Made by a program: the position numbers and the translations under genes. Source: Mytilus edulis (taxonomy: Eukaryota). Taken from it: 64,000 nt of DNA. The notes beneath the pieces are model-generated. The model ran no database searches. It worked only from the letters and a program-made list of their open reading frames with translations, and was not told the origin of the DNA. Location of the stretch: positions 46,500,001-46,564,000 of the forward strand of contig NC_092345.1 of assembly GCF_963676685.1 (NCBI RefSeq), written 5' to 3'. This document shows positions 9,845 through 44,600 of the stretch, in pieces; within the stretch, counting starts at the first letter, position 1, and each line of letters opens with the position of its first letter.

Positions 9845-12800
9845 ATGTAAGTCATTTACCTTTAGTACTCATTACAATATTGCAAATCTTATAATAAATA
9901 TCACTATTGCGATCACTTTTGTGATAATGATGGTGATCATTGTATCAGATAATAAATTATTTTTAGCACTACTTTCGTAACTGAGGAGGGACGGTTTGTT
10001 GAATTGTTTTTAATTTTAATGATAAATGCAAATATAGCTGCTTCATCTTACAGTAAATTGATGGCAAGATAAATGCTTGAAGGTGACGGTTAATAAGGAC
10101 ATCGATTCGAACGCGCACAATTAATAAAGTATTTTATTTTGTGTAAACACGACCTTTAAATTGCTACTGAGTGGAAACCATTTTATTCAAAATGCTGCAT
10201 TAGAGATTTGCTTCTACTTCCCTAATAAAGTGTACGAGTGCTTAAAAACTTGAATATTCTTCTTATAAATAACATTGCATAGCTATTTTCAATACGGATG
10301 ATTGTACAATTTTATAGTGCATTAAAAAAAATGTATTCATGTTCAGCCTTTATGTGACACAACAAAAGTATAATTTAAATGGAACCTAACTATTTTTATG
10401 TCTGCAAGGATCATTTTTTTAATCTTTACTTTTGTTTCCTCGAATCGTCAATCCTTTACATGTTTGATACTTTTGATTTTATTTTCTATTAAAAAAAAAA
10501 ACCCACAACGCCTCGATAGCCCCGTGGTAGTTTGTTTGCTTTATTTGCGATATTCAGTTTTTTTTTCTTTTTCTTTGAGAAGCTAAGGCAAGCATTTAAG
10601 GATATTAAAGAGCACGGTTTGCCAGCTAAGATTCACAATATTGCCATTGAATATATAGGAAGAGCGTCATGTAGTTCTATGGCCTGTTATCATGTGATAT
10701 AAAACGTTGTGAGACGCCTCCGTGTTTCGGTCTACTTAAATAATTGTTTTTATTTATATTTGTATCAAACTAACAGAAGGCTTGCTATATTTGCAACTAG
10801 ACGTTAAACAGTTATCTATTTGTTCATCTATTTTGAAATATACTCATGATACTGTTACAATTGAAACACATATAACAGAAACAAAAAAGTATTAGCAAAC
10901 ACAACTTAAAATTTTCCTTGATCATAAATCTTCGGGAGAAATGATAACTGTGTCAATACACAATGATAAGGATGCCTAAGTAGGTGCCACAAGTTAGGTT
11001 TGGTACAAATGGAATCCAAAACTTTTTTTTTATTTGTGTTTATATGAAACGTTACTTCTTAAATATATTTGGGTATCACTCGGTTCCTCTCGCGCATGTT
11101 ACACAATTTCTGGAAGTACTTTTAATCGTTTTAGTTAATGTCATTTTTACACCTTGACGCCCTGAAAAATATTTTGTGGACACTGCATGCTGGCAAGTAA
11201 ACCTTTCGTTGCCTTTGTAAGCTGGTCCCTGTTTTGCTTAAAGAGAGGATAAAAAATAAATATTGTGTTAAGAAATTCACCAACTTATCTTAGGAGCGTT
11301 TACCTCGATTACAATGTTTATTGCACGACTAAATGTTTTGTAACTTATTTCTTTTGGTTGTCTCCAGTACAAATCCTTGCTATAATTGCATACCAGTATG
11401 ATACCCTAAAATTAAGAACAACAATAAAAACGATATTAAGTTTTGCCAATATTTTCCCAAACTCCAATATATATGTGTTCGTACATTTGATGTAGTCCAT
11501 ATGATAAAACTGATTTAAAAACGTCTTCAATTCGCTTAATGAACTTAAAAATGTTTAAAATTGTCAAACTCTGGCTTCGTTTATTTTATCGTAATTCTGC
11601 CATCCTTGACTGATATCATACTTTCACCTTGGCACACATAACTTTGAAATAATATGTCAAAACCAGATTTCATTGATACTTATACAAGACTGAAATCTAA
11701 CAAGGACATTATGTTGTTAAGTCAAGAAGAAATCATCCAACAACATCATTATACAACATTCTTTGTTTACTATCTTTAATGAAAACTCTTTGCTAAAAAT
11801 TCGACAATAACAGTATTATTACTTTTGACAATTATAAATGACAACGCCGATAATACAAGTGAACTAAATAGGTCGGTACTTGGAAGTTTCTTAGTTGTTA
11901 TAATTTATTATTTTTTACAGTTTGTCCATGGAAGGGCGTTTGTTTAGGACGCTCACACACTCTAATGTAGCCTTAAGTCCAGTGGTAATTGTTGGTTGTT
12001 GTATGCTACAACTGTTTTATGTTAACTTAAACCAGGCCCTTTGTTTTTGTGGGGCCTACAAAGTTGTAGAAAATTAAACAGATTCGCTTTCAACATCAAA
12101 TTCTTTAAGTATCAAAAAGGAGGAAACTTAAAAAGCCAAACAACATTACAAAAAAAAACATTAAACAGTCAACCACTGACAATTTTACTGATTGCAGACC
12201 GGCACACATTTATGTGGTAGGATAAGATTGTTTTAATCTCACACCTCTCGATCAATGTCTAATAGTATGCATATACATGCAACAGTGATATACCGCAGTT
12301 CAAAAGTCACGTATCGATTAAGAGAAAACAAATCCGGGTTACAAACAATATCATATTCGTTATTGCATTAAACTATTTCAACTGCTTTGGTTGTGTTGCA
12401 TGCATATAAATAGTCATACTATAAAATACACAATCGAATTGTCTAGCAGCATTTATTTTAATTTTTAAAACTGAGGAAATAAAAAGTGTATGCATATCAA
12501 TCTTGGTTTAACTTCACTGATATTATGACAGGATTCTTATTTAATCAGTTCACTACCTTGGGTATTCTATTTTTTCAATATTAATAAGCAGGTTACTGGA
12601 TGAAATATGTATATATCGCGTTTGTGTATAAAAATTCTGTACCTTTAACTGAAGAAACATTTTTATCTAGTAATGTGCCCAACAGTTTTCATTGGCTGTC
12701 TGATTTCTTTTGGTTCTTTCATTATGTGTCATTTTAAACTTATGTAATTGTCATCATTTTTTGTCAGAATTTATTGAATTACAATTATTATTATAATTAT

Positions 12801-15800
12801 AAAAAAAACAGTTATTGTAACGCGCAAACCATAGATAACGTGAACTTTCTTATGTTCATTTAATAAGAATAAAGTATGCCTCTATAATATGCAACTTCTC
12901 ATTTATTTCAGGATGATTTACCTAGTTCTTATTACTGTAACATTAATTTCGTCAGCTGCATGTGAAAAACTATGTTTATATTGTGACCATGTACCTATTC
13001 CTCAGGATTGTTCACGTGTTGTGAGATGTGGAGCCCATGAAGTAAGCACTGATCTAGATTTGTTATTATACATGTCCTTCGATAATATACTTAAATGACG
13101 TTAAAACTGCATACCAATCAGATTTTGCAAGATACTAGGAATACAAAAAATAGCAATAACAAAAAATCGTTCTCGAAAATAATTGATTCCTTTTTAGAAC
13201 TTTTTCGCAATTTACAATGTTTAAGTACTGTCCTTACTGGTTATTAGCCATGTGCATTTCAGACTACTTACTAGTTATTTATGCCATTGCAATCCATGAA
13301 CTGTCAGTCAAAATACTCATCATAACTACGAACAAATAATTCAGATCTTAGTAAAGACTAAAATAAAACAGCAGATTAATCAAAACTTTACATTTTGATG
13401 AATTGAACTGCATTTAAGCTGACATTGTACATAATATTTTACAGGATTGTTATGTAGAAAAATTTGTTACACCTGATGGATATAAATATTATTCTTTGGG
13501 ATGTCGGGATATCGATGTAAGTTTTCATTCATTTAAATGATTGTATATTACTACCCTTGAATAACATGATCGCTGCCCTGAGGTGTTGATTTTGGTCTGG
13601 AGCTATGGTAACTCCTGTGTCAAACTCCTACTGAAGAGGAACGTTTATTGGATGTTTTTATAGATAAGCTGCTAAGTCCATTCGCATTTGGGACGTAAAT
13701 TTTGTAGCTAATATAACGATAATTTACAGATTGCCAACCACCAAACCAAATAACAACAAAATAAAAGGATCTGATCAACATGGAGTTACAAAAAACATTC
13801 GTGAGCAGGAGAGATCTCTTGTGATTCTTCCAATAGAAATTGTATGCAAAGTAAACATAGATACCAGCATGTGATACTTAGTTTTTGATGTCTAATTAAT
13901 TCATTTGCACACATACATGATGTCCTCAAAGATTAATATAATCTCAATATCAGATCATATCATTTGTTTTATGTGCACGTTTATAAATACTATCAAAGTT
14001 AAGTACTATAAATTAACCAAGCTTTATTCTCCACGTAGAAATGTTCTGGGGTATCGGCTATTGGTAAAAGGAGTTCCGGAAGCCTCGTGTTGAGGGACAA
14101 TTCACCTGTAGAAGAAGCTAACGATAATGGGGACACATCATTTTGCCGTGCATGCTGTAATGGAAAAGCCATCTGTAATGTTGACAATTTGTGTGGTTCA
14201 CCAGGTGAATAACAACTTATACCAGATGTTAAATGGAAAAAAAACATGATATAGAAAATTTAAGAAAACAAAAACAGTTCCACAAATCGATTAGATTATC
14301 TGACCTTCAAATTGATTTAACAGTATATATTACAATACAGTGTAATGGTTGTAATTCTGTAAAGATAAACTGTTTATAAGACAAAATTCGAGGCATTTTC
14401 ATTCAACACAAAGATACATACTTTAATTTCCTTTTATTCATACAGAACCAAACACATACGGCGGTCATATTTGTTTCCATTGTGAACAAGTGGAACATCC
14501 AGGAAAATGTAACAAGATAACTTTATGCGGCCAAGGTCAAGTATGTATTTTTTCTATTTTCTTGTTCTTCCTTTGCCATACTTGTAAAAAGTAAAATCAC
14601 AAAAGTACTGCACACTGAAGAAAATTCAAAACGGAAAGTCCCTAATCCAATTGAAAAAATCAAAAGCTCAAACACATCAAATGAATAGACAACAACTATC
14701 AAATTCCGGACTTGGTACACGCATTTTCTCAAATAAAATTAAGTCTGGTGTTTTTAACATTTTTTTTCCTCTATTAAGAATTTTGAGTCGAAACGAAAGT
14801 TTGTCGTATGATATTTTGATCCTGGTCTATGATGAATTTATTTACCTTATAATTCTACCTTTGAATATATGTAAAGCATTTTCTTTTAGAATTTGTTTTT
14901 TTCTAACATATCACTATTGACAAATAACATCAACTGTTTAATATTACGGACAGTATGATGTTAGAAATAGTAAATGTTTATTATTAATTTTACACTTGTT
15001 ATGCCATCATCACTTTGTAACCTCAATCACATGATCAATGGTATGTTCGACTTTGCGTGGCCACCTCATACTTTCAACGTTTTGTTAACAATACGTACTT
15101 CTCATTAACTAAGTTGTGTTCGTTATTGACAACACACCTGTTGATACTAGTGGCGCAAGGGTAAATTTTCCTTCATAAAATACGAGTTCCTCATTAATTT
15201 ACGCTGATATATCAGTAAAAAAGCCGATAAATAATTACACAAACAAAAATGAACTCGACGTAATCAAATAAATATAGTCCTAAATGGTGAGCGCCACTGA
15301 TGAGTTTACGTCGTATTGTGTTCAAAAATGCAAACTTTGTGTCCCTAGATTTTTTTATACCATTATGACTGTACATTAAAATTTGAATTGTTTTTCAACT
15401 CATTTGCAGTCTTGTAAAGTAGTCCAATACATCAACAGGTTTTCCAAGAGGCCGAATTACAGTTCCGGATGTGAAGAACGCGACGTAAGATTATACAGTC
15501 ACCTATTTGTTTTACTAAAAAGAACTGATTAGAATTCAGAATGAATTAACAAACTGACGATGCTTTATGTGAAATTAATTGTTTAGAAAGAGTTTGCTGA
15601 TAAGGCGGAATAGTATTATGAAGTCACATTGACTTCGCAATTGTTATTGGGTCCGAATAATGAAGTTTTCTGAATTGGTCCATTTTTATTGAAATAGGAG
15701 GCGAGAGATACAAAAGGGACATGTAAACGCACGTATAAATGAAGAATTTAAAGAGAATTTTCTGAACGACTAAGAAAGTATTCAGAAAAGAATGAATTGG

Positions 15801-18800
15801 ACAGGAACTACAATATGAAAAAAGCAAAAGATTCTGATACTTTATAGAAGTAGCATCATATAAGATTAACCATTTTTCGTAAAGCTTATGCTATATTGTA
15901 CTGCTTTCAAAACAGCCAAACCTTTCAAGGATTGCGTTCAATCCAGCATTAGAATGGGAATACATTAAGAAGATATTTATCTTTCATTTATAGTACAATA
16001 AAAACTGATAATGGAAATGGGAAATGTGTCAAAGAGACAACAACCCGACCAAAGAGCAGATAACAGCCGCAAACTATCAAGAAATGCACAACTTTTCCGA
16101 ATGATTTGAAATACAGACATATTGGTCGGGTTGTTGTCGCTTTGACACATTCCTCATTTCCTTTCTCGATTTTATAATGATATGATGCCCTAATGTTTTG
16201 GGTCTATTAAACATAACTAAAAAGACTTTAATACAAAAAACGGGGGAGAAAAACATACTGCGGGTATAAAGGCGATATAGTGTTTTTATCATTAATATAT
16301 TCACCTGATAATAATAGCTGCTATCACCTGATAATAATAGCTGCTATCTGTATTGTATCTTTTCAGGAGTGTAATTTACTAAATGACAGCACAGAATGTT
16401 GCGATTCAAATTTCTGTAATGATAACCTACGTACGTTTTCTTTTCCTTTCTTTATTATATTACAATTAATGTCTATTGACGTTTTATGTTGATTTTTGTA
16501 CATACGAATCGTTTTTGGTCAATACCGTTTACCATGTACTCAGCGATCAAATTTTATTATAACATTACACGTAAAACGTTAGCTAAAATATCTTTTAAAA
16601 AACGACTAAATTCCCTTATTGTGTTGTTTGTCTAACGAAAGGACTAGATTTAACAAATCAAAAGTACACATCATGAACGGCATGCATTGAACCAATTTTC
16701 TACATTATCTTTCATAATAGTTATCAAAGGTACCAGGATTATAATTCTTTACGCGTTTCGTCTACATAAGACTCATCAGTGACGCTCATATCAAAATAGT
16801 TATAAAGCCAAAAAGTACAACGTTTAAGAGCATTAAATACCCGAAATTTCAAAAAGTTGCGCCAAATACGGCTAAGGTAATCTATTTCTGGAATAAGAAA
16901 ATCCTTAGTTTTTCGAAAATTCAAAGTTTTGTAACAGTAAATTTATAAAATTGACCATATAATTGATATTCATGTCAACGCCTAAGTGCTGACTACTGGG
17001 CTGTTGATACCCTCGGGGACGAAACGTCCACCAGCAGTGGCATCGACCCAGTGGTGTAAATAGTTACATGTATCAAAGGTACCAGGATTATAATTTAATA
17101 CGCCACACGCGCGTTGCGTCTACATAAGACTCATCAGTGACGCTCAGATTAAAATAGTTATAAAGCCAAACAAGTACAAAGTTGGAGAGCATTAAATACC
17201 AAACATTTCAAAAAGTTGTGTCAAATACGGTTAAGGTAATCTATTCCTGGGATAAGAAAATCCTTAGTTTTTCGAAAAATTTAAAGTTTTGTAACAGTTA
17301 GAAAAAATCGTTTAAAACCGAATATTTGAAAGCAAAATATGTATAAGAAATAAGACAGTTTAAGCGCTTATAAATCTGTGTAATTCAAATACATAATTTC
17401 TTTGGATTTTTTTTAACTAGAGATTCCAGTTTTTAATCTCTATGCCCTCTATGGAAACTGATCTGGTTGAGGTATCTGTAAATGTTAGTATTCTGGTATT
17501 CATTTTAGCTTGCAAAGTAAGACTGAACGATAATCCAGTTCTAAGTATACCATACATAAACCAAGATGGAGATGTGAAATTTAACTGTACATTTAGGAGT
17601 TCAACATCTAGGATGGACGTTGTGTACAAAGTGTCATGGACTGTAGATGGTCACCCTTTAAAAAACAGAAAAGGAATTGATGAAGTTACTTTATTAAGTT
17701 CATACGAACGCGTTGCTATTTTAGATGCATACAATCTTAATGGAAACCTTAATAAAATGGTATATTATCACATTATAAAACCGTATAAGACACTTTTTAA
17801 ACAAGCATGCATCGTAAAGGTGTAATACCACCAAAATCATAGTATGTAACATCCAGTTGCAAACAACAAAGGGTTGAAAAATATTCTCTTTAACTTGACA
17901 TTTCGTTGCAATAAAACATTGCTTGGTCATAAACCTATACATGTTTCAAAGCATCATCTAAGTTTTAATTGTTGTTTCTATAGAATAATTTGGAAGCTTG
18001 AGCTAACATGGTTCATGAAGCTTCTTCAAAAAGTGCAATTTTACGAAGAATAATAGCGGAAAATAAATGGTGGTATGACACCTAAACGAATTAAACTTTT
18101 ATAAGCCTGGTACCTTTGATAACTATTAGTATGTCGAAATGACCTTTTGTATTGTTTATAGTGTATTTCTCTATCCTGGATGTTCTTGCATTTACTTTTA
18201 TTGTAATCCTGTCACGTAATGTTGTCATTTTAGTGTTAATTTAACATTGTTATGAAAGCGCGAGGTTTTCCTAGCCACAAAACCAGATTCAACCCACCAT
18301 TTTTTTTTTAAATGTCATGTACCAAGTTAGAATATGGTGGTTATTATCTTATAGTTCGTTGCCTTTATTTTTACCGAAAGTATGATATGAACACATCCAC
18401 GTCAATGAGACAGTCACTAAGCGATAGAAACTACTTTTATTGTCAATAAGAAATTAACACGTTGTCTTTGACAGCGGCTGGTATTTAAATTTTGACTTAA
18501 ATCGCACAATATGAATATTTAACAAATACTATTAGAGATCTACCATCATCTCCACATCTTGACAAAATTCAGTAAAATATTGTAAAACACTACCACTTAC
18601 GAGTTTCCTGATTTTGGACAGGTACATTCGAACTATAAGAAAATTGTTGAAATTTCAACCTATTTAAAAATAGATTGGTTGAATTGAAAATTGAACATAC
18701 CACATACCAGATATACAACAAAATCAAGGTTCTTTGATCAATGTGATTTTACAACAACAAAAAATTAGGATATTATGTAATTTTAAATATTGAAATCTAA

Positions 18801-21800
18801 AATTTAGCACTTTATCATCAATTCTCTACTACATATTGAATATAATTTAAGCTCCGGTGTAAGGTTGAACCACAGTGTAGTATTGGTGATCCCTTACCTG
18901 GATCACACAGTAATGGCTACTGGGTAGGAATAAAGGTAAATATTGACAAACATTTAGTTGATTAATTTATCTTCCTTGCTTAGCTGCATGTAGCAAATAT
19001 TAGGCGATATTTAGAACGACTGGGCATTACTAGTTTTGATAATAAAAAAATCGACTTTAAAAGAATTGGAAGAAAGCTATACACAATATGACAATATTTG
19101 AACAAATAATATTACGTTTCAGCTGTATGAAGTGAAGAGATTATGGGAGAAGAAAAGCAAGGAAATTAACACCAAAACGAAAACAATAATTGTAGACAGT
19201 TTCTACTGCTTAATTTATAAAGAACACAAACCTCTTACGTCGAGTACAATTAAGCAATATGAAAATATGTTCAGTTTATTTTCACTATCTTAAATGGGCG
19301 TAAGGTAAATTCTGTCCCATTACATTATTAGAACAAATTGATACCTTTCAATAATTTCAAACAATTTTTACTGAACAAATATTAGTTGTACACAAAGGCA
19401 ATGATATCTTGCCGGGTGTTGTAAATTAAGTACTCATTTCATTCATCATTTGCTTCTACAGGTATCCCCACAAAGAATATCTCATACAGTAGAACAGAAT
19501 ATAACACTGGTATCAACATTGCCAGTAGTCAGTAGTGATGGGTTACATAAACTATATGTTGGTCCACAGATAGAGAGTACAGGTATTAATGATTACTAGT
19601 TAAAACGTCGTAAAAATGTCAAATTGATAAGAGATGAAGGGATATAAGCCACTGAAATAGCGACACAACAACACAACAATACCAAAACGACATCAAGAGA
19701 TGATCAAATGATCAGCAACAACAAACATATGTCTATTTATTATGTTGGTCTCTAAATTACCCGGGTTTAATAATGAGATGCTACTCAACATGCTCAATAT
19801 ATTCCATTCAATGCCCTTTTGACCCTCAATAGAATTATAAAACTATAATAAAAATAACTAATGACTAGGTTCCTGTTTTGGAACCAGCCATTTAAATGAT
19901 ACGGAGTAAAAGATTACTAAATAAGTATACCAAACTTTTGATCTCTTGAACAAGATGTTTTTGTTCCCATCAGACTCATCAGTGGTACTCGATTTAAAAA
20001 GTGTTAAAGGCAAGATTTGATAATAATTCGAAGATCATTGCAACTTCAGGTAAAGTGAAGATCGTGTTGTTTTCCCGTTCTCTATGTAGCTTCATCTTGT
20101 AAAGCAATGGGTAAATTCATAAATTCACTTTCGATAGAAACAAAAAGAACAGAATTTCCATTTTAACAATTAAACTGATATATGAGGGAAACGATGAAAA
20201 ATAGCACCTTTAATCACTTTTAAGGCCATAAAATAGTGAATATAAAATTGAGAATAGAGTAGATAACAGCAGAAGGTCACCAATACATACTGTTTGTGTG
20301 GCACAAAAATGCTGCCTACAGTAAAATTCAGAAGCTAAATGAATTAGTAAGGAAATTAAAATAGCAAATTTCCGCTGCTGATGATAAACAAGTTATATTA
20401 TCTATTTCAGGTCAGAATTTAACTGCGTGTAAATACCCTTTTGAATGGGATCCGTTTACTAGAAAGTACATCAGTACGATACCTGTTCATATTCTGCCAC
20501 ACTCATTTTACAAGACTTCCGACAAGTTATTCTTTAGACAACTGAAGGATTTAAATTTTCCAATATTTCGGAACTACAATTTACCAATTGTTCAGATAGG
20601 AGTAAGTTTTCATTAACAATAACAATAATACAATTGAGAAAAATAACACTACAAAAAAGACTAAATGCATACATTTGTTCATCTTTATAACAATTAACGT
20701 TTTCGTATAACCTAAACAGAAATATTTAGCATAACAGAACAGCATACCACACCTGCAATATAAAAGAACAAACCATACTATGTTTGTTCCCATAGGCGAT
20801 AATCAAATACGTTTTTTAACATTTAACATAGAACTGACTATTTTTCGTAGTATTCTTGTATGAGATGAAAGTTAAAAATAAACATTTTTTAATTTAAATA
20901 TACACTCATACATATATTTTAAAAACAAACTAATCGAAAATACCATCATATTAGAAATTGGTACACATTAAGAGCCTAAAATTTCGAAAGATTTGGCCAA
21001 ATATAACTGACATTTGACAGATACTATAAATAAAATATTTTATATCATCTATGCATATTAATTTGAACTTTGGACTTTTCAAAGAGCTACATGGCCAACC
21101 ATGATGTATCCCATAGGTGTGAACTTAAGGAAGGACATGTAAACGTGTTTGACAACTTGTAAGCATTTACTTACCATTTTAGGAATATTACAAATAATTT
21201 CTTATATGAAGAGGGATATCATAAAGTCTATGCAAATACGCCGTTTTAGATTCAGAAGTGTCGGAAGTGTCATTGTTTGTATATGAAAAAGAAAATTACG
21301 TCATGACAGACGTTTAATTTCAAGTATTTAAGACGTTATTAGCTAATCCTAACGTTTTTGCATCATAATCTGAAACGACGATTTCATCTTAACAAATTAA
21401 TTCAATGAAACGAATTACACCATTAAACTTGAGGGTATGAATAGAATTACATATAAGAGTATAATGAGCGATACAAAATAACAATTAAAAAAGGATTTTT
21501 TAAAATGTGAAGAATACAGAAATAAAGAACCCATTATGACTCTCACGCTTAACAAGTGAGTTATTTCAGTAAAAACAAATTGCCGATCTGCCTATCTTTT
21601 AAACAGCAAAACTCAATATCTCCCCTTACAAAATTTATTATATGTAGTTAACCTGTGTCATCGCATTGTTAAGAGAAAAAACATGTTTGGTGTATTATGT
21701 AGGATGGAGGGTTATTTCGCTGTGTTAAGGACCTATTTGTTAACTTATGTTTTTTTTTTTGGCTCTTTGACATATATCCCATTTCCATTTTCAATTTTAT

Positions 21801-24800
21801 GATGATTCTTCATGTAGTACATTGAATAGCCAGTTGAAGGTTTTACATAGATATCTAAATACATTTGGAATAACCATTTACGCGTAGTTTTACATAAACT
21901 CACTTGAGTCTCTCCGACTAAGTTTAAAAAGACTTAAGTAAGGAAATACGAAAGGAACACGATCCTACATGCAGTACTTACAGTCATTTCAAATTGTAAT
22001 TTAACATCACTGTTTGCTAAATCAATTTTATTTGTGTTTTATTTTTTTTTTAATTTTTAGGAAAATAGATGAGACACTAGATGCCTCAGCATATTCATAT
22101 TTAGAACTTTACAAAACAACTTCCACACCCACGATTGAGGTAAGTATATTAGAACCTAGCAATAATTTACCATAGTTTTACGGATTTTTCTTTATATCAA
22201 GTACCACTGAAGCAAACATTACGTCAAGAACTTCGACTTTATCTGTTCCTAATTATTACTTTGATGTCACGGAATATTTATGTTTCAGTAACAAATAGGA
22301 AGAAAACATTTGCCAATTGAATGTAGCTTAACAACTGTTACTCATTACATCCTCCAGGGCATCTGAGAAGTAAAGAAAGTGGTTCCAATTACAAATCGTA
22401 AAATTAAGAGAATCTTAGATGGAAATATCAAATGTAGAACATTATAAATAATGGTTAATGCTAACGAATACAATTGTGTTAGTATTTATTATCAGCTGTA
22501 ACACTAAGCAATTACTTAATACACATGTATCCTTCATTTTAAATAAACGTTAGAACAATTTACTGTGACAATTCATTTATATATCACTTTGTCAGTAAAT
22601 GTATCTCATAAAATACACAGGTCCAAGTAAAAAGACAACCTTGTGGCAATAAAAACTGCTCTTGTGCAATCATTGTTCGTGAAGGGAACGACGCCGTACA
22701 AATAGATACCTGCGGGCAGACAACATCAATTATCCCAGAAGTTACGTATTTATCAAACACTTCGGAAAAACACATGAGCATGCACCAAACAGATGACGGA
22801 TTATTTTTTCGCGTGAGTAAACTATTAGCATTGTTTTGTCATGTGTATTTACAATTGCGGCAGTTTTACGAACGCTTATGACAATCTGAGTCGGTTCTTT
22901 ATATAGTACTTTCATTATGTTAAATATGCATTTACGCTGTGAACTAAACTTTCAAAAAAGTAATTAACACATAAGCATTATTCCTGTAAACTACTTGTAA
23001 GTACACTTTTTTTCCAACTGCTATGGTAGTTAATCGTATTTAATAAACTCATCATAGATACCAAGATTAAATTTCGTATTTAAGCCAGACGCGTGTTTCG
23101 TCTACAAAAGACTCATCAGTGACGCTCGAATTTAAAAAAGTTAAAAAGGCCAAATAAAGTACGAAGTTGAAGAGCATTGAGGACCCTTACAGTCCACTCA
23201 AAACCTTTGTTATACGAGACATGCTAATGTTAGTTTACTTTTTCTTTAACATTGTACATGTTATATAAAGGTTATCAAGCAATAGCATGGCAAAACTATT
23301 TAATTGCATTATTCTTCATCGAAAATGGCTTGAAATGTTTTTTGTAACATCCAATTACTAGTAGTATAGTACACTTATTTTCTTGTTCATTTAACTAAAA
23401 TTTACAGAATTTATTAAACGGTTATATATTAAAACTAGTGTATACATATGAGCACATATTTCACTTGAATAATACTCATTTGTTGGTTTTTGAGTTACGT
23501 TCGTCATAAATTACAGGTCACAGTATTGTCTGGTTCAAATATAACAGTAAATTTGACCGGGTCGGATCCAGACATGCATGTAGTGTTGTCGATCTTAGAC
23601 CAAGACAAGAATCCTCCTGGCGGGATTTGTGGGAATGAAACATGGTTATTTATACCTGGTATTGGAAATGTAGCAGCAAATGGTCAAAAGGAACCAGAAT
23701 TTCTTAAAGCATGGACGTAAGTATCTCATCATTACACCTTTCATTTTTTTCATTAAGTTTATTATGGCACTTGTTTTCTACATTTTTTCTACTCCTTATT
23801 TCATATATAAAGTTAAATCTTTGTTGTTGGACTTTACAAACCAGACTATTAAGGAAGTAGATTATTTATATTTTTTTTATATTATTTAATGGTTTTGTAC
23901 CGACCGAAAGCTCTGGGAAATTGTATTAACTAGGAAAGTCCCTTGTCAAATTGCAAAATCAAAAGCTCAAAAGTCGAAAATGGTGGATTAAAACCTCGTT
24001 TTAGAGCTAGCTATACCTTTCACTTATTTGACCATCAGATGAAGTATGCAACTTCTATGGATAGAATTTCATTATCTTGACAACCTTTTGTTAACAAAAC
24101 AAACAGAGATAACAGGAACAATGTCAAAAAGATGGGTACAGCAGTAAACGTTGTTTATTTTAATCACAATTAAAATAATTTAATATGTCAACAAAGAACA
24201 ACAAAATGGCATATAGACAAAACACATTAGCAAAAATAAAAAACAGGAATACAAAATATGACTATATTTTATTGGCGGAATATATAAGTACCTAGCCACG
24301 ACAACAGACTATTGCCAACAATGAACTAAACATTAAAGGTTATACTTTATAAATAAGACAAATAAAAGAACACTTTTACACGTTAGCAAGATAATACACT
24401 ACGTAAAAAACATATTTACTGAACTTCAATACCATCGAGTGTTATTTGTGAAGTTGATACGGAATATTTAAAAAAAGGTCTTCGTATCTTCCAAATAGTT
24501 TTACATAGTTTGATTATTGCGATTCATAACTGCATTTTAACTATATTACGAAATGTTAAACTTGGTATTTCGATATCCATGCCAAAGCTATAGGGTCATG
24601 TGGTATTTACAGACATTGTTGATTCGATTTTTTTCAAAAATATTAATCACAAACATTGTCTTCCAATCAGTGGAGCATACACTTCAGTGTTATCCAAAAT
24701 CTTCTCCCCTAAATGGGCCCTTCATGATGACGTGTTTTTATTTATTAACGAAATGTCCTATAAACGATATGATCAAATCAGTTGAGTTATTGAAGGTAAA

Positions 24801-25750
24801 ATATTCGGATCCTCTAATGAAATTTGAAAAAAAATACCGTCAAGGAATCATTTTTATAAGGTATTTGATAATGTTTCTTACATTTTTGTCACGATTAATA
24901 CGAAATGAATTTCGGATGGCTCATCTTTGTCCGAAAACTCAACACCGGTTATGCTATTACTGTCGATAGGGTAATAACAAATAATTGACTGTGTGTCCCC
25001 GCTGATGATAAAAATAGTAATTTGGTACTGGATTAAATGAAATTTATATCTCGTTATGAAATTTAGAAATTATTTTTATATTCCGCTGATGTTTAGATCT
25101 AATTATTAGTTTGGGTATGGTTATATTATTGATCCTTTTTAAAATCGGGTTTGGATTTTAATAAACAAAGTAAAGACATGTTTGTATGTCGACATACGCA
25201 TGTGGAGCAGTAACATTCATACCACGAAAGGCATAGTTAACTAAAACTTTGAAGTCGTTTGCACCAAACAACTGCACTTCATTATATTCTTCATTTATTT
25301 AAAGGTTGTTTGTATTTATATCTTAATTTATTCTAATTTTCCTGGTTGAAAAAGTTTTTTTTATCAAATTTGATCTTGCTAAATTATTAGAATTTTCAAA
25401 TAAAAATATGACACATTGAAGCTATTTTATATATACCTATTCTCAATATAAATCATTAACAAAACCAAAATGTGAATAAATCGTTTCAATCATTGTGAAA
25501 TAACAACAGCAAAACGACAAGAAATGAAGTTATTCTACGAATGCAGTTGGGTGAATAAGAAAGATGAAAGGTCATGTTATTTATCTATAGTAACTGAATG
25601 TAGTTTTGTTTTAAAATTTCTAATTTCAGTTTACCACAGAATGCAAGCATGTTCAAAACTGGTATTTCTTTTGATCAAAATAACAGCATAACAGATATTG
25701 GGTATTGTAAATGTGAAGGACCAAACATAACTTGTGGAACCGTCATATGA
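9845..25750 (+). CDS. Gene copy A: secreted protein, signal peptide + 2 Ly6/uPAR-like Cys-rich domains + VWDE-like Ig-like region + VWD domain (~638 aa, intact)
   Basis: Exons, all AG..GT and phase-compatible: E1 ..9846 (AT), 12912-13041, 13445-13516, 14039-14204, 14446-14540, 15410-15484, 16367-16430, 17509-17759, 18852-18935, 19462-19582, 20411-20601, 21085-21158, 22061-22139, 22621-22812, 23517-23716, 25630-25750 (TGA). Total 1917 nt with no internal stop. Motifs: MMIYLVLITVTLISSAAC; CLYC..CCNGKAICN; CFHC..CCDSNFCN; FNCTF..VSW; SNGYWVGIK; VQVKRQPCG..CSCAIIVREGND..IDTC; GGICGN; F..AW..NASMF..YCKC. Every exon has a conserved counterpart in copy B. Confidence 0.88.
16716..17300 (-). mobile_element. 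Non-LTR retrozyme-like tandem repeat (about 1.6 copies of a 358-bp unit) with two minimal hammerhead ribozymes, inserted in intron 7 of copy A
   Basis: Repeated unit (actcatcagtgacgctc at 16771 and 17129). Minus strand: gcgtca-CTGATGA-gtct-tatgt-agac-GAAA/GCAA-c-gcgc-g..tggcg. Absent from the paralogous intron of B (ctttcat|cagaatcgtttaaa at ~41887). Confidence 0.8.
23083..23125 (-). ncRNA. Minimal type-I hammerhead ribozyme with intact catalytic core (in a ~140-bp repeat fragment, 23045-23186)
   Basis: Minus strand: gtca-CTGATGA-gtct-tttgt-agac-GAAA-c-acgc-GTC|tggc. Stem I gtca/tggc, stem II gtct/agac, 2-bp stem III. Confidence 0.8.
23935..24520 (-). mobile_element. Degenerate Penelope-like 3' end plus common interspersed repeat (paralogous copy at 49585-50150)
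   Basis: The minus strand near 24420-24495 reads GRYEDL..KYSVSTSQITLDGIEV, similar to the RT C-terminus GRHHELVGRYGITVSQMILD at 47552-47630. Confidence 0.4.
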
Positions 25751-32608: not shown

Positions 32609-35600
32609 ATGTAAGTCATTCGCTAAAATAAGTACTGTGGATTCATTATTATTCGTTGGGTACCATTTTTTTGTGGGAACAGGTTAACCATGAATTCAAA
32701 TCTTCAACGAATAACAAATTTCCTATTGGTTTTTATGCAGAGACTGGACAAAGCACAAAACCAAAATATCAGTGCAAATGTAAGTTTTCATCAATCCACG
32801 AAATGTGATACCCACGAAAATAAATGAATACACAGTTCTAAACTTTAGTATTTTTGATGAGTTTTATTATTTCTAATTAAGGTAAACATTAAACAAATTG
32901 GAATGTATATTACATACGACATTTTAATGCTGAAAGGCAATTTTCAACGCGGCGTTTTCAAGTCTATATAATGTTACATTCCACATCACAGTTTTTTTCC
33001 AGTCAGTTTTATTTTTCACTCTATTAAATATATATATATAAAAAGTCCTTTAACAAGACCACGTTACAATTATCATCGAATGCAATTTCCGACTAATAAA
33101 CAGGTTTTAACTTTTAATGGACAAAACAAGAGGTTCCTAAAATGAAGCATTTCATCCTTCAGAGCTGGTCTTAGTTCATTTTCTGTATTTGTTAGAATCT
33201 GCTACTGTACATTTTAGTTGGTGGCTGGGGAAAGCGTTGCGTTTTCTTGTGATAATTTTTATAATTCGGTCTAATCTTCATTAATTAGACAGAAGAAAGA
33301 TTGTGCTTTTCATATCCGTATATAATGCACATTATCTTAAAAATAGCTTAACCTTATGTTCATACTAATAGAACAAGTAAGTTTTGAAGATAACAAACAG
33401 TATCATTCACTTCAGGAAAATATTCCGATTTCTTATTACTGTATCATTGATTTCGTCAGCGGAAGGTGGAAATCTGTGTCTATATTGTGACCATGCACTA
33501 ATTCCGCAGGATTGTGCACGTGTTGTTAGGTGTAAAGCTGACGAAGTAAGTACTATATACTAGTATACGTCTCAAAGAACCTATTTGATAATTGTCGGTG
33601 TTATATTTTGTTGACAGAAGTATTTCAAATCAATATCTCGCAAAATATAGTTGAGGTAATTTGAGTACCTTTTTACATTTGTAACACAAAAATATGAGAG
33701 TGTAAGTGGGGTAAATAAATGAGTCAAGAACATTGAAAAGTTTTTTTTACGATTAAAGTTAAAAGGTTTGATAAAACATATTCATATTCAAGATGTTATT
33801 ATTTTGAAAACTACCATTTATGACGGGCTTTTAAAACTTGTACATGTGATTGAAACACATGACAAGTCAAGATACTCAATGAGGCTAACGTCACTTAGTT
33901 CACATTTAAGTAAAGACTAAGATAAAACCAACAGATGATAGAAAACCATGACACTTTCATGAATTCCAACTGACAATAAACAATATATTTTACAGGATTG
34001 CTTTGTAGACAAGTTTGTTACACCTGATGGATATAAATACTACTCTTTGGGGTGTCTGCATAAAAATGTAAGTTTTCATTCATTTTCTTGACTATTTATC
34101 AACTTCCTTGAAAAAGTATTAAAAATCTTCATGTTTGCTTTGCTAATATGTGGTATGTTATAGAACTAAGGTAACTCCGGAACTTATAGCAGTAAAATTT
34201 ATACTGAAGAGGAGCGTCTGATTGGCCGTTCGGAATGGGGACGTTAATTGTGTACTCTATGTAACTAAAGCTAACTGATTGTAAGTCACCAGATTGGTAA
34301 AAAAGCAAAACGAAAAAGAGTATTCTGTTAACCAGGACCAAATATAAAAAAAAGAAGATGTGGCATGATTGAAAACGAGACAACTCTCCACAAGAGACCA
34401 AAATGACACTCAACTTTACAGCTATAGGTCACCGTATGGCCTTCTACAATGAGCAAAGCCCATACCGCATGCATAGTCAGCTATAAAAGGCCCTGAAATG
34501 ACAACAATTCAAACAAGAAAACTAACGGCCTTATTGGTGTACAAAAAAGAACGGAAGACAAAAAAGATAACTCATAAACAAACAATAATCACTGAATTAC
34601 AGGCTCCTGACCTGGGACAGGCACAAAGTATGGATTCACAAGCAGGCGACTTCTGATGTTTCTTTTAATGAATATGTCATGTAAAATAACACAGATACCC
34701 GCATACGATGGTTAGATTTTATGGCCTGATTCATTTGCACAGTTGCAAGATCCTGTCAGATATTTACATTATCGCGATATCTAATCCTGTTCCTAGTAAT
34801 CTGTGATCGTTTCTAAATACTGTAAAACAAATATGGTAGTAATATAGCCAAATCTTTATTCTCTGTGTAGCAATGTCCTGGAACTACGGCTATTGGAAAA
34901 AGGAGTAACGAAAGCATTGTTTTGAGAGACAACATTCCTGTAAATGCAAACGACACATTATTTTGCCGTGCCTGTTGCCACGAGAAACCCATCTGCAATA
35001 GTGACAACTTGTGTGGCTCACCAGGTGACTAACAACTAAAATAGATATAAGTATTAGATAAATGTGCATGAGATGTTGCCTGCTTGTGAATGCATACTTT
35101 GTGCCTGTCCCAAGTCAGGAGCCTGTAATTTAGTGGTTGTCATTTGTTTATGTGTTACATATTTGTTTTTCGTTCAGTTTTTGTACACAAATAAGGCCGT
35201 TATTCTGTGCTCGTTTATAACTACAGTCAACATTATATTAATAAATTAACCAAGTCGTCATTTATTCTCTACGTAGAAATGTTCTTGAGCTTCGGCTATT
35301 AGTAGACGGAGTAACGCAAGCCTTGTGTTGAGAAACAATATCCCCAACGACAATAGCGACTCATCAGTTTGCCATGCCTGCTGCAATGGGAAAGCTATCT
35401 GCAATGTTGACAATGTGTGTGTTTCACCGGGTGATTTACACGAATGTAGACGTACTTGATAAAGAACAAAAAATTATAAAAACCTAATTATTCCTCCAAC
35501 TGTTTAGGGTTTCTCACCTGTATAAAATTCAAATTGTTTAAACTTACTTATAAATTAAGGGACGGTGCATTATTTATCAAGCAGGGGGACCGGTGCAAAT

Positions 35601-38600
35601 GGTAAGGGGACATGTACTTTTTTCAACGTGCAAAGTAGTGGGACCTGATGATTTTTCATTATCTTAATGCATGGGACATACACTTTTTTCAAATGCTTAA
35701 GTAGTAAACATTTTATTTTAATTAGCCCAAAAATACACACAAGAAACATTCAAACAGAAACAGAATATGATAAACAATTTTAGTTTTGACTGGTGTAAAT
35801 CAGCTCATCTAACTAAATTAAATATTGATCTTACAAAATTCAAGCTTATTAGATAGTTTGATTTATTGCTGTGAAATGAAAGAATTTAATTTTACAATAG
35901 GTAAAAATAAAAATAATTATATAAATTCAGATAGGCATCTTTAATTTTTTTTTATAACTTTTTCAAATCAACTTGGTTTTTCATCAAACTATACAGCTAT
36001 CTTAGATATATATTAAGCTTACTGAATCCCAGGTCATTTTGTTTTTTTGTTGTATTGCTGTCAAATTCAAGAATTAAATCAATCTAGGTAAAAAAAAAAG
36101 CTAGAATTTGCATTTCGAACAAAATAGAGATAGTACACTTTAATTATTTTAATAACTTTTTCAAATCAACTTGGATTATCACCAAACTAAACAGCTATCT
36201 TAGATATATATTAAGCTTACTGAATCCCAGGTCATTTTGTTTTTTGTTGTATTGCTGTCAAATTCAAGAATTAAATTAATCTAGGTAAAAAAGCTAGAAT
36301 TTGCATTTCGAACAAATAGAGATAGTGCACTTTAATTATTTTAATAACTTTTTCAAATCAACTTGGATTTTCATCAAACTATGCAGCTATCTTTGATATA
36401 TATTAAGCTTACTGAATCCCAGGTCATTTTGTTTTTTGTTGTATTGCTGTCAAATTCAAGAATTAAATCAATCTAGGTAAAAAAAGCTAGAATTTGCAGT
36501 TCGAACAAAATAGAGATAGTACACTTTAATTATTTTAATAACTTTTTCAAATCAACTTGGATTATCACCAAACTAAGTAGTTATCTTAGATATATATTAA
36601 GCTTAATGAATCCCAGGTAATTTATTTTTGTTGTATTGCTGTCAAATTCAAGAATTAAATTAATCTAGGTAAAAAAGCTAGAATTTGCATTTCGAACAAA
36701 ATAGAGATAGTACACTTTAATTATTTTAATAACTTTTTCAAATCAACTTGGATTTTCATCAAACTATGCAGCTATCTTTGATATATATTAAGCTTATTGA
36801 ATCCCAGGTCATTTTTGTTTTTTGTTGTATTGCTGTCAAATTTAACAATTAAATTGTAAAGTGTACTATCTCTAACTTTTTCGAACTGCAAATTCTAGCT
36901 TTTTTTACCTAGATTTATCTAATTCTTAAATTTGACAGCAATTCAACAAAAAAACAAAATGACCTATGATTCAGTAAGCTTAATACATCTCTAAGATAGC
37001 TGCATAGTTTGATGCAAATCCAAGTTGATTTGAAAAAGTTATAAAAAAAATTAAAGATGCCTATCTGAATTTATATAATAATTTTTATTTTTACCTATTG
37101 TAAAATTAAATTCTTTCATTTCACAGCAATAAATCAAACTACCTAATAAGCTTGAATTTTGTAAGATCAATATTTAATTTAGTTAGATGGGCTTATTTAC
37201 ACCAATCAAAACTAAATTTGAAGGTCAAGACTAGTCGAGAATGTTAAAATGATTGTCAAAAACATTTATATCACAATAAATATTGTTGCTTTACGTTATT
37301 TAAGGTACAGATTGTGTTTTTATTCACTCAATATATTCATGATATTCATGGGACACATACTTTTTTTAATGAATAGAGGTCATGGGACATAACTGTTTTT
37401 CCTATCACATCAGCATGACACAATACTTTTTTCCAAACAGGTTTTGGGATTTGCACCGGTCCCCCCTGCTTGATAAATATTGCACCGTCCCTAACGAAAT
37501 CTATTCAGAATATTTCACCGATTTTAAAGTACAAATGTATATTATAAATGCAAACTACCTAATCATATTTAGGAGGCTGTCGTATAATAGTTACAAGTAT
37601 TCGAGTATTAGCAATAATAGGATTCAAAAATATTACACGACCTTGACATCATTTTTTATGTCATAGCCAAGAGTAAGATTTAAAGAAATCTTTTGCGTTT
37701 ACAAATCATAATTTATGAATTTTACCAGCAAGTTCTATTGCTAAGGTGTAACAGTCTCTATATGGAGGCATTTCGATAAAGAAAACGAAAAATTCAGAAA
37801 AAGGTTTGTCGGTTATATCTTGTACGTAAACCTGTAGGGGGAAGCGTTACACCCCAAACAGGAGTGTATCAGTATTAGTATCGGATGACTTCCACATGTT
37901 CCAAGGGATTAAAAGGGGGGAAATATCTGAATAAGAACTATAGATCTACTGGTAAAGAGGAAAGACAAAATAGTAAAAACCATATTACTATTTTAAATAA
38001 ATGACAGAGAGACTTATATTTTAGCATTTTACAGGGTCAGGCGTTTCTCTAACTTCTTTTGACATCTTAAATCTCGATCCATTTGAGGTGTACTGATTGA
38101 TAATTTGGTCTGGGAGAACATGATTTATTTGTTTTAGTTAAATTTTGGACATGATTTTAAAAGTTATGAGTACTTATATATCAGTGTTGTATAATTGTTA
38201 ATATATATGTTAGTTGCTCATCACAAATGCATCATTATACATTTGTCTGATAAAATCATTTATTCATTCATTTATTCATGTATAAATAATAATTCTAAGT
38301 CTAAAATATTAACCTAGTGTTTTATCAAAGGACAACGATGATTGTCCTTATCATGCTTACGTACGGTGACCTAAGTTGTTTATTTCTGTGTCATTTGGTC
38401 TCTTGCGGAGAGTTGTCTCATTAGTAATTAAACCACATCTTCCTATTTTTATAGTATGTGTACTAATTTTGTAAATATTGTAGTTTAGCTGGTTTGTCTC
38501 GAAAAAGAAATATAAAATAAACAGGATTGTTAATCTTTAAATGATTTTATTATCCTTGTTGTTGTTATATCTGTAAAATAAATAAACTCAGTAAGACAGT

Positions 38601-41600: not shown

Positions 41601-44600
41601 CTTACAATATATTTCCAGTTAAATTAATGTCTATTGACGTTTTATGTTGATGTTTGTACATACGAATCGTTTATGTTCAATACCGTTTACCAATTATTCA
41701 GCGATCAAAATTTATTATAACATAACACGTAAAACGTTTATGTGAATCAATAGCTAAAAATATCTTTTAAAAAACGACTAAATTCGCTTAGTGTATTGTT
41801 TGTCTTCAGAAAGGACCAGTTTTAATAAATGAAAAGTACACATCATAAATGGCATGCATCGACGATATTTTCTACATTATCTTTCATCAGAATCGTTTAA
41901 AACCGAATATTTGAAAGCTAAATATGTATAAGAAACAAGACAGTTTAAGCGCTATCGAAACAACTTAAATCTGTGTTATTCAAATCCAAAACTTGATTAC
42001 TGTTTTTTTCTTCTTTGGAATTTGTTTAACTAGAGATCCTAGTTTTTAATCTCTATGCCTTCTATTGAAACTGATCTGGTTGAGGTATCTGTAAATATTA
42101 GTATTCTGGTATTTATTTTAGCTTGCAAAGTAAGACTGAACGATAATCCAGTTCTAAGTATACCATACATAAACCAAGATGGAAATGTGAAATTTAACTG
42201 TACATTTAGGAGTTCAACATCTAGGACGGACGTTGTGTACAAAGTGTCATGGACTGTAGATGGTCACCCTTTGAAGAACAGAAATGGAATTGATGAAGTT
42301 ACTTTATTAAGTTCATACGAACACGTTGCTATTTTAGATGCATACAATCTTAATGGAAACCTTAATAAAATGGTATATTATCACATTATAATATCTTATA
42401 AGACACGTATATGCGTCGTAAAGGTGTAACACCACCAATCATCAAGTATGTCACATCCAGTTAAAAACGACAAAGATTTGAAACATATTCTCTTAAATTT
42501 GACAGTTGTAGGCAATTAACTCTACATTTCATTGCAGTAAAACATTGCTGGGTCATAAACCTATACCTTGGGTGTTTCAAAGCATCATTTAAGTTTTACT
42601 TGTTGTTTCTATTGAATAATTTGAAGGCTTGAGGTAACATGGTTCCTAAAGCTTCTTCAAAAAGTTCAAATTTTACATTGACCAATAGCGGAAAATAAAT
42701 GGTGGTATTACACCTAAACGAAGGAAACGTTTATAAGCCTGTTACCTTTGATAACTATTAGTATGTCAAAATGACCTTTTGTATGGTTTATGGTGAATCC
42801 TGAATGTTTTTGCTTTTATTTGTACTGTAATCCTGTCACGTAAGGTTGTCATTTTAGTGTTAATTTAACATTGTCATGAAAGCGCGATGTTTTCCTAGCC
42901 ACAAAACTAGATTCAACCCACCTTTTTTTCTAAAAATGTCATGTCCTAAGATAGAAAATGGCAGTTGTTATCTTATAGTTTGTTTCTGTGTGTGTAAAAT
43001 TATCGTTTTTTTCATTGGCGCACTTCTATGTTTCTGTTGTTTCGTTCTTTTCCTCTTGTGTCTGATGTGTTTCTCTCGGTTTTGGTTTGTGGCCCGGATT
43101 TTTTTTCTCTCAATCGATTTGTGAATTTCGAACAGCAGTATTCTACTGTTGCCTTTATATTTACCAAAAGTATGATATGAACACATCCACGTCAATGAGA
43201 CAGTCACTTAGCGATAGAAACTGCTTTTACTTTCAATAAGGAATCAACACGTCGTCTTTGACAGTGGCATGTAGTTTAAATTTTTGCCTTAAATCGCACA
43301 GTATGAATATTTAACAAATACTATCAGAGATCTACCATCATCTCCACATCTTGATAAAACTCATTAAAATATTGTAAAACACTACCACTTACGAGTTTCC
43401 TGATTTTGGACAGGTACATTCGAAGTTTAAGAAGATTGTCGAAATTTCAACTTATTTAAAAATAGATTGGTGGAATTGCAGATTGAACCAACCACATACG
43501 AGATATACAAAAAAATAAAGGTTCTTTGATCAATGTGATTTCACAAAAAAATGAAAAATTAGGATATTATATAATTTTAAATATTGAAATCTAAAATTTA
43601 GCACTTTATCATCAATTCTCAACTCCATATTGAATATAATTTAAGCTCCGGTGTAAGGTTGAACCACAGTGTAGTATTGGTGATCCCTTACCTGGATCAC
43701 ACAGTAATGGCTACTGGGTAGGAATAAAGGTAAATATTGGCAAACATTCAGTTGATTAATTTATCTTCCTTGCTTAGCTACATGTAGCAAATATTAGGCG
43801 ATATTTAGAACGACTGGGTATTACTAGTTTTGATAATAAAAAAATCGACTTTAAAAGAATTGGAAGAAAGCTATACACAATATGACAATATTTGAACAAA
43901 TAATATTACGTTTCAGCTGTATGAAGTGAAGAGATTATGGGAGAAGAAATGCAAGGAAATTAACACCAAAACGAAAAAAATAATTGTAGACAGTTTCTAC
44001 TGCTTAATTTATAAAGAACACAAACCTCTTACTTCGAGTACAATTAAGCAATATGAAAATATGTTCAGTTTATTTTCACTATCTTAAATGGGCGTAAGGT
44101 AAATTCTGTTCCATTACATTAATAAAACAAATTGATACCTTTCAATAATTTCAAACAATTTTTACTTAACAAATATTAGTTGTACACAAAGGCAATGATA
44201 TCTTGCCGGGTGTTGTAAATTAAGTACTCATTCCAATCATCGTTTGCTTCTGTAGATATCACCACAAAGAATATATCATACAGTAGAACAGAATATAACA
44301 CTGGTATCTACATTGCCAGTAATCAGTAGTGATGGGTTACATAAACTATATGTTGGTCCACAGATAGAAAGTACAGGTATTTAAAATGATTACAAGTTAA
44401 AACGTCGTAAAAATGTCACATTGATAAGAGATGAAGGGATTTAAGCCACTGAAATAGCGACACAACAATACCAAAACGACATCCAAGAGATGAACAAACG
44501 CTCACCAACAACAAACATATGCCTATGTATTATGCCGGTCTCTAAATTACCCGGGTTTAATAATGAGATGCTACTCAATATATTCCATTCAATGCCATAT

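Follow-up and report, generated by a model that had tools for sequence, protein, structure and literature searches.

Introduction

Three-finger domains of the Ly6/uPAR (LU) type are usually treated as single-chain, protease-stable units. The main text of an LU review (PMC6600238) describes strand E as a flexible edge element of the domain and the finger loops as its usual interaction surfaces; the words furin and convertase are absent from that main text. In molluscs, the fusions LU-C1q, LU-fibrinogen, LU-Ig and LU-MAM are given in the main text of the invertebrate three-finger survey by Paramonov et al., 2026 (PMC13719153). That main text contains none of the terms cleav-, convertase, furin, amidat-, dibasic and Mytilus, and the first, second, third and fourth of these are also absent from a paper on starfish three-finger proteins (PMC11595613). 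Full-text searches of the openly accessible literature yielded no paper on cleavage or amidation within a mollusc LU domain.

Insulin and relaxin precursors are built from a signal peptide, a chain 1, a dibasic site, a variable connecting peptide, a second dibasic site and a chain 2 that is joined to the first by disulfides. The insulin A-chain carries the pattern CC-x3-C-x8-C within the helical insulin fold. The sodefrin precursor-like factors are secreted two-domain three-finger proteins of amphibians, one of which yields a peptide cleaved from its C-terminal end. In neuropeptide precursors, KR is preferred over RK, basic runs end in Arg, Pro is avoided and aliphatic residues are few after the run, and a hydrophobic residue stands before the Gly. 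Pro directly after a dibasic site disfavours the cut, and a cut after a single basic residue needs another basic residue at P4, P6 or P8. The X-Gly-basic-basic signal is processed by PC1/PC2, CPE and PAM, as outlined in passages of PMC6669573. Sepia SP-alpha and SP-beta, in the sections of PMC3484142 devoted to them, are secreted Cys-rich mollusc precursors with dibasic cuts and some amidated peptides, as shown by MS. Oyster hemocyte peptides are convertase-processed and bear pyroglutamate, with which the oyster big defensin also starts (excerpts of PMC3182236). Among the other candidates considered for comparison, Cragi-GSWN and CCCGS, two precursors of the oyster, fall outside the LU proteins (passages of PMC8398477), and the two-finger toxins of PMC12236594 have a different fold.

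The window analysed here is a 64-kb stretch of Mytilus edulis DNA. It is AT-rich and holds a multi-exon gene in two tandem copies, A and B. A previous sequence-only reading had proposed that the first LU domain of gene A carries a prohormone-style site in a long loop, with cleavage into a disulfide-linked two-chain form, amidation and possibly the excision of a short connecting peptide, as an activation switch.

Structure of gene A

Gene A, whose introns all have AG/GT edges, gives an open protein of 638 residues (Table 1). The closest proteins come from M. galloprovincialis and M. edulis, and 560 of the 638 residues are identical in the orthologue P0003. The protein comprises, in this order, a signal peptide, the 12-Cys domain LU1, the 10-Cys domain LU2 and a tail with a weak VWDE-like resemblance, and it is predicted to be secreted. 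Its most hydrophobic 19-mer starts at residue 1 (KD 1.86), the model places a helix at residues 2-17, and beyond residue 30 no 19-mer lies above KD 0.95. The layout of the split start codon is matched in gene B at 32609-32610. One RNA contig has 75 extra letters upstream of 12912. The exon at 14039-14201 is present in the spliced contigs of three of the four RNA runs compared, out of 24 listed (0, 0 and 2 differences), at contig offsets that agree with the exon model; the fourth run, taken as raw reads, has next to no depth over it.

The Pfam match of LU2 is weak (Toxin_TOLIP on P0003 133-198, E 0.039). Its finger 2 includes at 15446-15454 a second KR (FSKRPN), where a cut is disfavoured because Pro follows. 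For the C-terminal region, a Pfam Ig_VWDE match below the cut-off and a VWDE-like Atlas cluster (score 0.82, 175 features) serve as leads only. A candidate exon at 17421-17471 was rejected, being skipped in the RNA (joint 16430-17509). At 22061-22139, an acceptor region seen in copy B is absent from copy A. Between 20601 and 22621 the RNA contigs have 141 letters and the in-frame model 153, so that either the acceptor at 22061 is used in this allele, adding 4 residues, or its frame is shifted.

Table 1. Features of gene copies A and B, in window coordinates
Feature	Position	Strand	Basis or remark
Last letters of gene A exon 1, AT of a split start codon (inferred)	9845..9846	+	AT followed by GTAAGT donor; gives the M ahead of exon 2
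Exon 2, coding for the predicted signal peptide and for Cys1-4 of LU1	12912..13041	+	Gene model, RNA contigs
Exon 3: LU1 finger 2, Cys5-6	13445..13516	+	Gene model; 72-letter gap in run X9 RNA contig
Exon 4: Cys7, long loop and C-x2-CC-x5-CN-x4-C end of LU1	14039..14204	+	Gene model; spliced contigs of 3 runs
33-residue loop of finger 3 (residues 71-103)	14045..14143	+	Gene model; between Cys70 and Cys104
Ile76 (predicted amidated residue), Gly77 (predicted amide donor) and Lys78-Arg79 (predicted convertase site)	14060..14071	+	Sequence, family statistics
SSGSLVLR, possible connecting peptide of the earlier proposal; no support for a second cut in gene A	14072..14095	+	Single Arg87
LU2: 10 Cys, 8-residue loop, no GKR (exons 14446-14540, 15410-15484, 16367-16430)	14446..16430	+	Gene model, RNA
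C-terminal region: 9 exons, VWDE-like (lead only), stop at end, no membrane anchor	17509..25750	+	Gene model
Exon 4a of copy B: 29-residue loop, GKR at 34895-34903	34871..35024	+	Sequence
Exon 4b of copy B, with an in-frame TGA (35286-35288) and SRR replacing GKR	35277..35430	+	Sequence

Predicted fold and disulfides of LU1

The Cys residues of LU1 at positions 22, 25, 34, 40, 46, 64, 70, 107, 108 and 114 form the ten-Cys LU pattern that ends in CC-x5-CN, to which Cys104 and Cys120 are added. All 12 are invariant in 78 aligned proteins. In the wider family these additional residues, Cys8 and Cys12 of the 12-Cys pattern, are both found in 232 cases, neither in 26 and one only in 5. Since they are gained and lost together, Cys104 and Cys120 are likely a pair; LU2 of gene A lacks it. 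By the canonical pairing (1-5, 2-3, 4-6, 7-8, 9-10), Cys70-Cys107 would be the 7-8 bond.

A search by sequence for a solved structure found none. AlphaFold, given P0001 with 78 sequences, produced a three-finger sheet at pLDDT 82, and a single-sequence fold of P0003 (pLDDT 31) was set aside. The best structural matches of the P0001 model are GPIHBP1 (Z 9.2, rmsd 2.5, 78 aligned), CD59 (Z 8.1), LYPD6B and PSCA; the top 39 VIA rows are all three-finger structures and the best Foldseek E is 0.003. Residues 67-75 of the model form a helix and 76-100 a coil, with pLDDT 58 and 49 for residues 71-90 and the lowest values at 80-85. An LU fold is predicted from this model, with the site in coil where strand E and the finger 3 tip lie, and the loop appears to replace strand E.

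The GKR site in copies A and B

The letters of the two copies agree with what had been read from them. Positions 14063-14071 are GGTAAAAGG and 34895-34903, in exon 4a of copy B, are GGAAAAAGG, both coding for G-K-R. AIGKRS and VLRDN are common to exon 4 of gene A and exon 4a, which are 71% identical in DNA, while the flanks and the loop length vary around the retained GKR; the loop, given earlier as about 30 residues in gene A, measures 33 there and 29 in exon 4a. At 35301-35309, past its in-frame stop, exon 4b reads S-R-R instead. The second domain had been described as lacking this loop. LU2 of gene A indeed has neither the long loop nor the motif, and among the paralogues in the own genome the same is true of 20 of 21 second exons, but in the wider family the motif is present in 47 of 93 second domains.

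An N-glycosylation sequon lies two residues past GKR in the orthologues P0001-P0003 and in exon 4a, as it does next to 6 of the 128 family sites, and could hinder the cut. The furin consensus R-X-K/R-R is absent: P4 is Ile in gene A, and Arg occupies P4 in 2 of the 128 family sites. Consequently, PC1/3- or PC2-type enzymes would be needed in the same cell.

Comparison of the two copies (12912-14204 with 33417-35024; 17509-23716 with 42122-49367) gives identities of 71-83% for the LU1 exons, 92-95% for the LU2 exons and 95-100% for the 3' exons. This gradient may reflect either a fast diversification of LU1 or a 3' part that was recently converted or duplicated. Copy B has, at 51205-53900, extra duplicates of the exons 48272-48463 and 49168-49367 in a 1218-base tandem unit, some of them apparently truncated. 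The intron after exon 4b contains at 35775-37220 an array of a ~192-base repeat with an inverted copy.

The mollusc family

With the orthologue P0001 as query, a full HMMER scan returned 170 clusters at 50% identity, the best 150 of which were taken; word-index protein searches reached 3, 3 and 12 proteins. Eighteen of 20 checked members could be named (14 bivalves, 4 abalone). The bivalve carriers of the family are mussels, oysters, clams, a scallop and freshwater mussels, and the named carriers of G[KR][KR] are mussels, oysters, clams, a freshwater mussel and abalone. A chiton relative has a loop with RRR and without the Gly. The 12-Cys pattern occurs in 237 domains of 131 out of 152 proteins; the 21 proteins without a match stand outside the count, and P0001 and P0003 were excluded as orthologues. 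The partner domains among 78 scanned members are Ig (14), C-type lectin (11), ShK (3), fibrinogen (2), VWC (2) and VWA (1), and Pfam UPAR_LY6 is recognised in 28 of these 78 relatives. A Pfam search with P0001 found no family, and its best Atlas match (0.84), a 62-member mollusc cluster, is a lead only.

In the own genome (G000), a 24-residue exon-2 query matched 36 places, several of them clustered. Clusters of family genes with several near-identical copies lie at C11 55.77-56.09 Mb and C10 52.1-53.1 Mb, and many of the clustered genes continue into Thr-rich mucin-like stretches. In one paralogue (L065 2860-3050, C11 ~21.60 Mb) the loop is internally duplicated with two IIGKRQ sites, an arrangement from which a spacer peptide starting with Gln and ending in an amide would be set free. 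The closest paralogue outside the window (L046, C2 ~27.18 Mb) has three basic sites in its loop (GRRK, NKR, NKR).

Conservation and sequence grammar of the site

GKR had been noticed as a feature of one gene and turns out to be family-wide. G[KR][KR] is present in 128 of 232 unique loops (127 proteins), compared with 8.4±2.8 and a maximum of 18 in 2000 within-loop shuffles, and in 3 of 232 finger 2 segments of the same domains. In the 50,818 residues of these proteins that lie outside the loops there are 34 Gly-basic-basic triplets, a chance level of about 0.02 per loop of the size found in gene A. Loop length varies from 10 to 61 residues, the motif lies 2-22 residues from Cys7, and the six residues following the site are 8% alike. 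On the other hand, the Gly form is absent from 104 of the 232 loops, 34 loops have KR or RR without Gly and 70 have no dibasic pair, so that the family works without the site in many domains.

Because the query of the wider set itself holds GKR, a blind set was made from own-genome loci picked by exon-2 likeness alone, with the loop unseen. It controls for that query within one genome only. In 30 of its 33 loci a terminal exon was present within 10 kb; the other 3 had none there. The motif is found in 26 of 28 unique first loops (1.6±1.2 when shuffled), in 17 different codon spellings; one of the two misses, L054, resembles a second-domain exon. All these counts are of related sequences and not of independent trials, and p-values therefore overstate the significance. 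A FastTree tree of 233 loop-free cores (66 columns), uninformative for counting events and without a shuffled control, gave 52 Gly-site changes, 41 swaps among KR, RR, KK and RK and 23 second-site changes, with only 2 independent pairs on supported branches.

The basic runs follow the neuropeptide-precursor rules. KR and RK stand at 138:25 in the loops and at 98:85 elsewhere, and Arg is the last residue in 196 of 212 runs (64% expected). Directly after the Arg-ended runs, Pro is found in 0 of 196 (8 expected), Ile, Leu or Val in 8 (46 expected) and Gln in 30 (11 expected); such a Gln would allow a pyroglutamate start like that of oyster big defensin. Gly precedes 125 of 162 first runs and 5 of 49 later ones, and Ile, Val, Phe or Leu precedes the Gly in 97 of 128 (22% background). 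Since Gly is tied to the first run only, the first chain would be amidated and the discarded spacer would not. A second KR or RR occurs in 31 of 128, a threefold enrichment over the expected 10.1±2.7. The blind set repeats the pattern: a Gly precedes 26 of 27 first runs but 1 of 15 later ones, and a second site occurs in 12 of 26. Family statistics and the AlphaFold coil agree in presenting the X-Gly-basic-basic signal as conserved and exposed. The genome has 33 exon matches to copper monooxygenase PF01082 on several chromosomes, suggesting an expansion of such genes; PF01082 also covers dopamine beta-hydroxylase-like enzymes.

Proposed processing and its alternatives

The recurrence of GKR across a large mollusc family makes it likely that these domains mature by a cut into two chains that stay joined by disulfide and include an amidated end, and we regard a convertase cut followed by amidation as probable. 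The earlier proposal to this effect agrees with the conservation of the site in homologues, where it also shows the grammar of a processing site; the cut itself is a prediction from sequence. In this scheme, a prohormone convertase would cleave behind Arg79, Lys-Arg would be removed by a carboxypeptidase and Ile76-amide left by an amidating enzyme. The first chain would have 58 residues (6549 Da, ~6.5 kDa), include fingers 1-2 with Cys1-7 and end in Ile-amide; the second would have 559 residues (62,024 Da, ~62 kDa). The shared sheet and one disulfide, presumably Cys70-Cys107, would hold them together, and the extra pair Cys104-Cys120 would lie wholly within the second chain. The suggested excision of SSGSLVLR finds no support in gene A, where Arg87 is a single basic residue and P4, P6 and P8 are all non-basic. 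Gene A reads VLR at this place, and three M. galloprovincialis proteins read VLRK or VVRK. The release of a connecting peptide is supported for a part of the family: at about a quarter of the sites, the second KR or RR would free it and give an insulin-like B-C-A layout in a different fold. Finger 3 would also be opened by the cut, and a short hydrophobic tail with its amide (xx-I/V/F/L-amide) would be exposed as a binding epitope; the LU module that bears it stands ahead of lectin, Ig, fibrinogen, VWA or VWDE-like domains. As the least certain step, we infer that this opening and display is the most likely purpose.

The same residues could serve in an uncut loop as a finger 3 tip motif, hydrophobic-Gly-Lys-Arg, that binds an acidic receptor, a glycan or a lipid; RGD is such a finger-loop motif in dendroaspin. 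The strong hydrophobic bias before the Gly fits this idea, as does the fact that the predicted cut rests on sequence, and finger loops are the usual interaction surfaces in the LU review's main text (PMC6600238). A binding motif is, however, hard to reconcile with a distance from Cys7 that drifts between 2 and 22 residues and with the importance of residue order, and it leaves unexplained the Arg ends, the protease-rule residue that follows and the enriched Gly-less second sites. It is considered quite unlikely. Cleavage of another kind, in which the loop is a bait or release segment for extracellular trypsin-like or microbial proteases or for constitutive convertases and the Gly gives flexibility and no amide, is unlikely. 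The exposed coil of the model, the recognition and matrix partner domains and the loops with KR or RR without Gly would all suit it, but the Gly belongs to the first site only, trypsin-like enzymes need neither a pair nor the KR order, and the furin consensus is rare.

For gene A itself, the site might be real in the family and yet an unused leftover. The fast divergence of the LU1 exons of A and B and the sequon adjoining the site in orthologues lean that way. Against this, GKR is kept in A, in exon 4a and in the three M. galloprovincialis proteins while the flanks change, and the single case of loss is the exon with a stop, which makes a leftover very improbable. The convertase cut with amidation is thus retained as the preferred reading: the family-wide LU-domain variant is a real trait, and the cut is a strong prediction. 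A broader and tentative proposal, which may well prove wrong, is that these are a large class of mollusc three-finger prohormones, LU modules matured in secretory granules into two-chain, amidated and often pyroglutamate-capped forms whose tail is a tethered ligand on lectin, Ig or matrix domains. If true, they would connect innate immunity or matrix signalling with processing of the neuropeptide type.

Comparison with known systems

The mollusc family shares with the Ly6/uPAR proteins GPIHBP1, CD59, LYPD6/6B and PSCA the ten-Cys pattern ending in CC-x5-CN, the predicted fold and a variable strand E. It differs by its loop of 10-61 residues that bears a dibasic site of the amidation type, its extra Cys pair and its mobile N-terminal module. 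Each domain has three exons with phase-0 inner introns, whereas two exons are typical in the main text of PMC6600238, where extra disulfides near loop 3 are also known in LYPD6 and type II receptors. The fusions of Paramonov et al., with LU ahead of Ig or fibrinogen in molluscs, probably overlap with the present family (main text of PMC13719153). The Sepia SP-alpha and SP-beta peptides, as listed in PMC3484142, lack the LU Cys pattern and form a separate family. The sodefrin precursor-like factors release their peptide from the C-terminal end, whereas LU1 would be cut inside finger 3.

At least 170 clusters from bivalves, abalone and chiton are apparently built for a finger 3 cut and an amide, which, if true, is a new maturation mode. 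The prediction is sharp and cheap: an amidated chain of 6.5 kDa under reducing conditions. When made recombinantly and left uncut, these abundant 'uncharacterised' proteins of molluscs may not be in their active form. The layout of the LU1 family is like that of insulin and relaxin, but the fold and the Cys spacing are different, one interchain disulfide is predicted, chain 2 runs into further domains and the second site is found in a minority of cases. With C-x2-CC-x5-CN and a beta three-finger model, the family falls outside insulin/relaxin and would be prohormone-like in its working only; if the cut is true, it would have arrived independently at the insulin-type two-chain layout.
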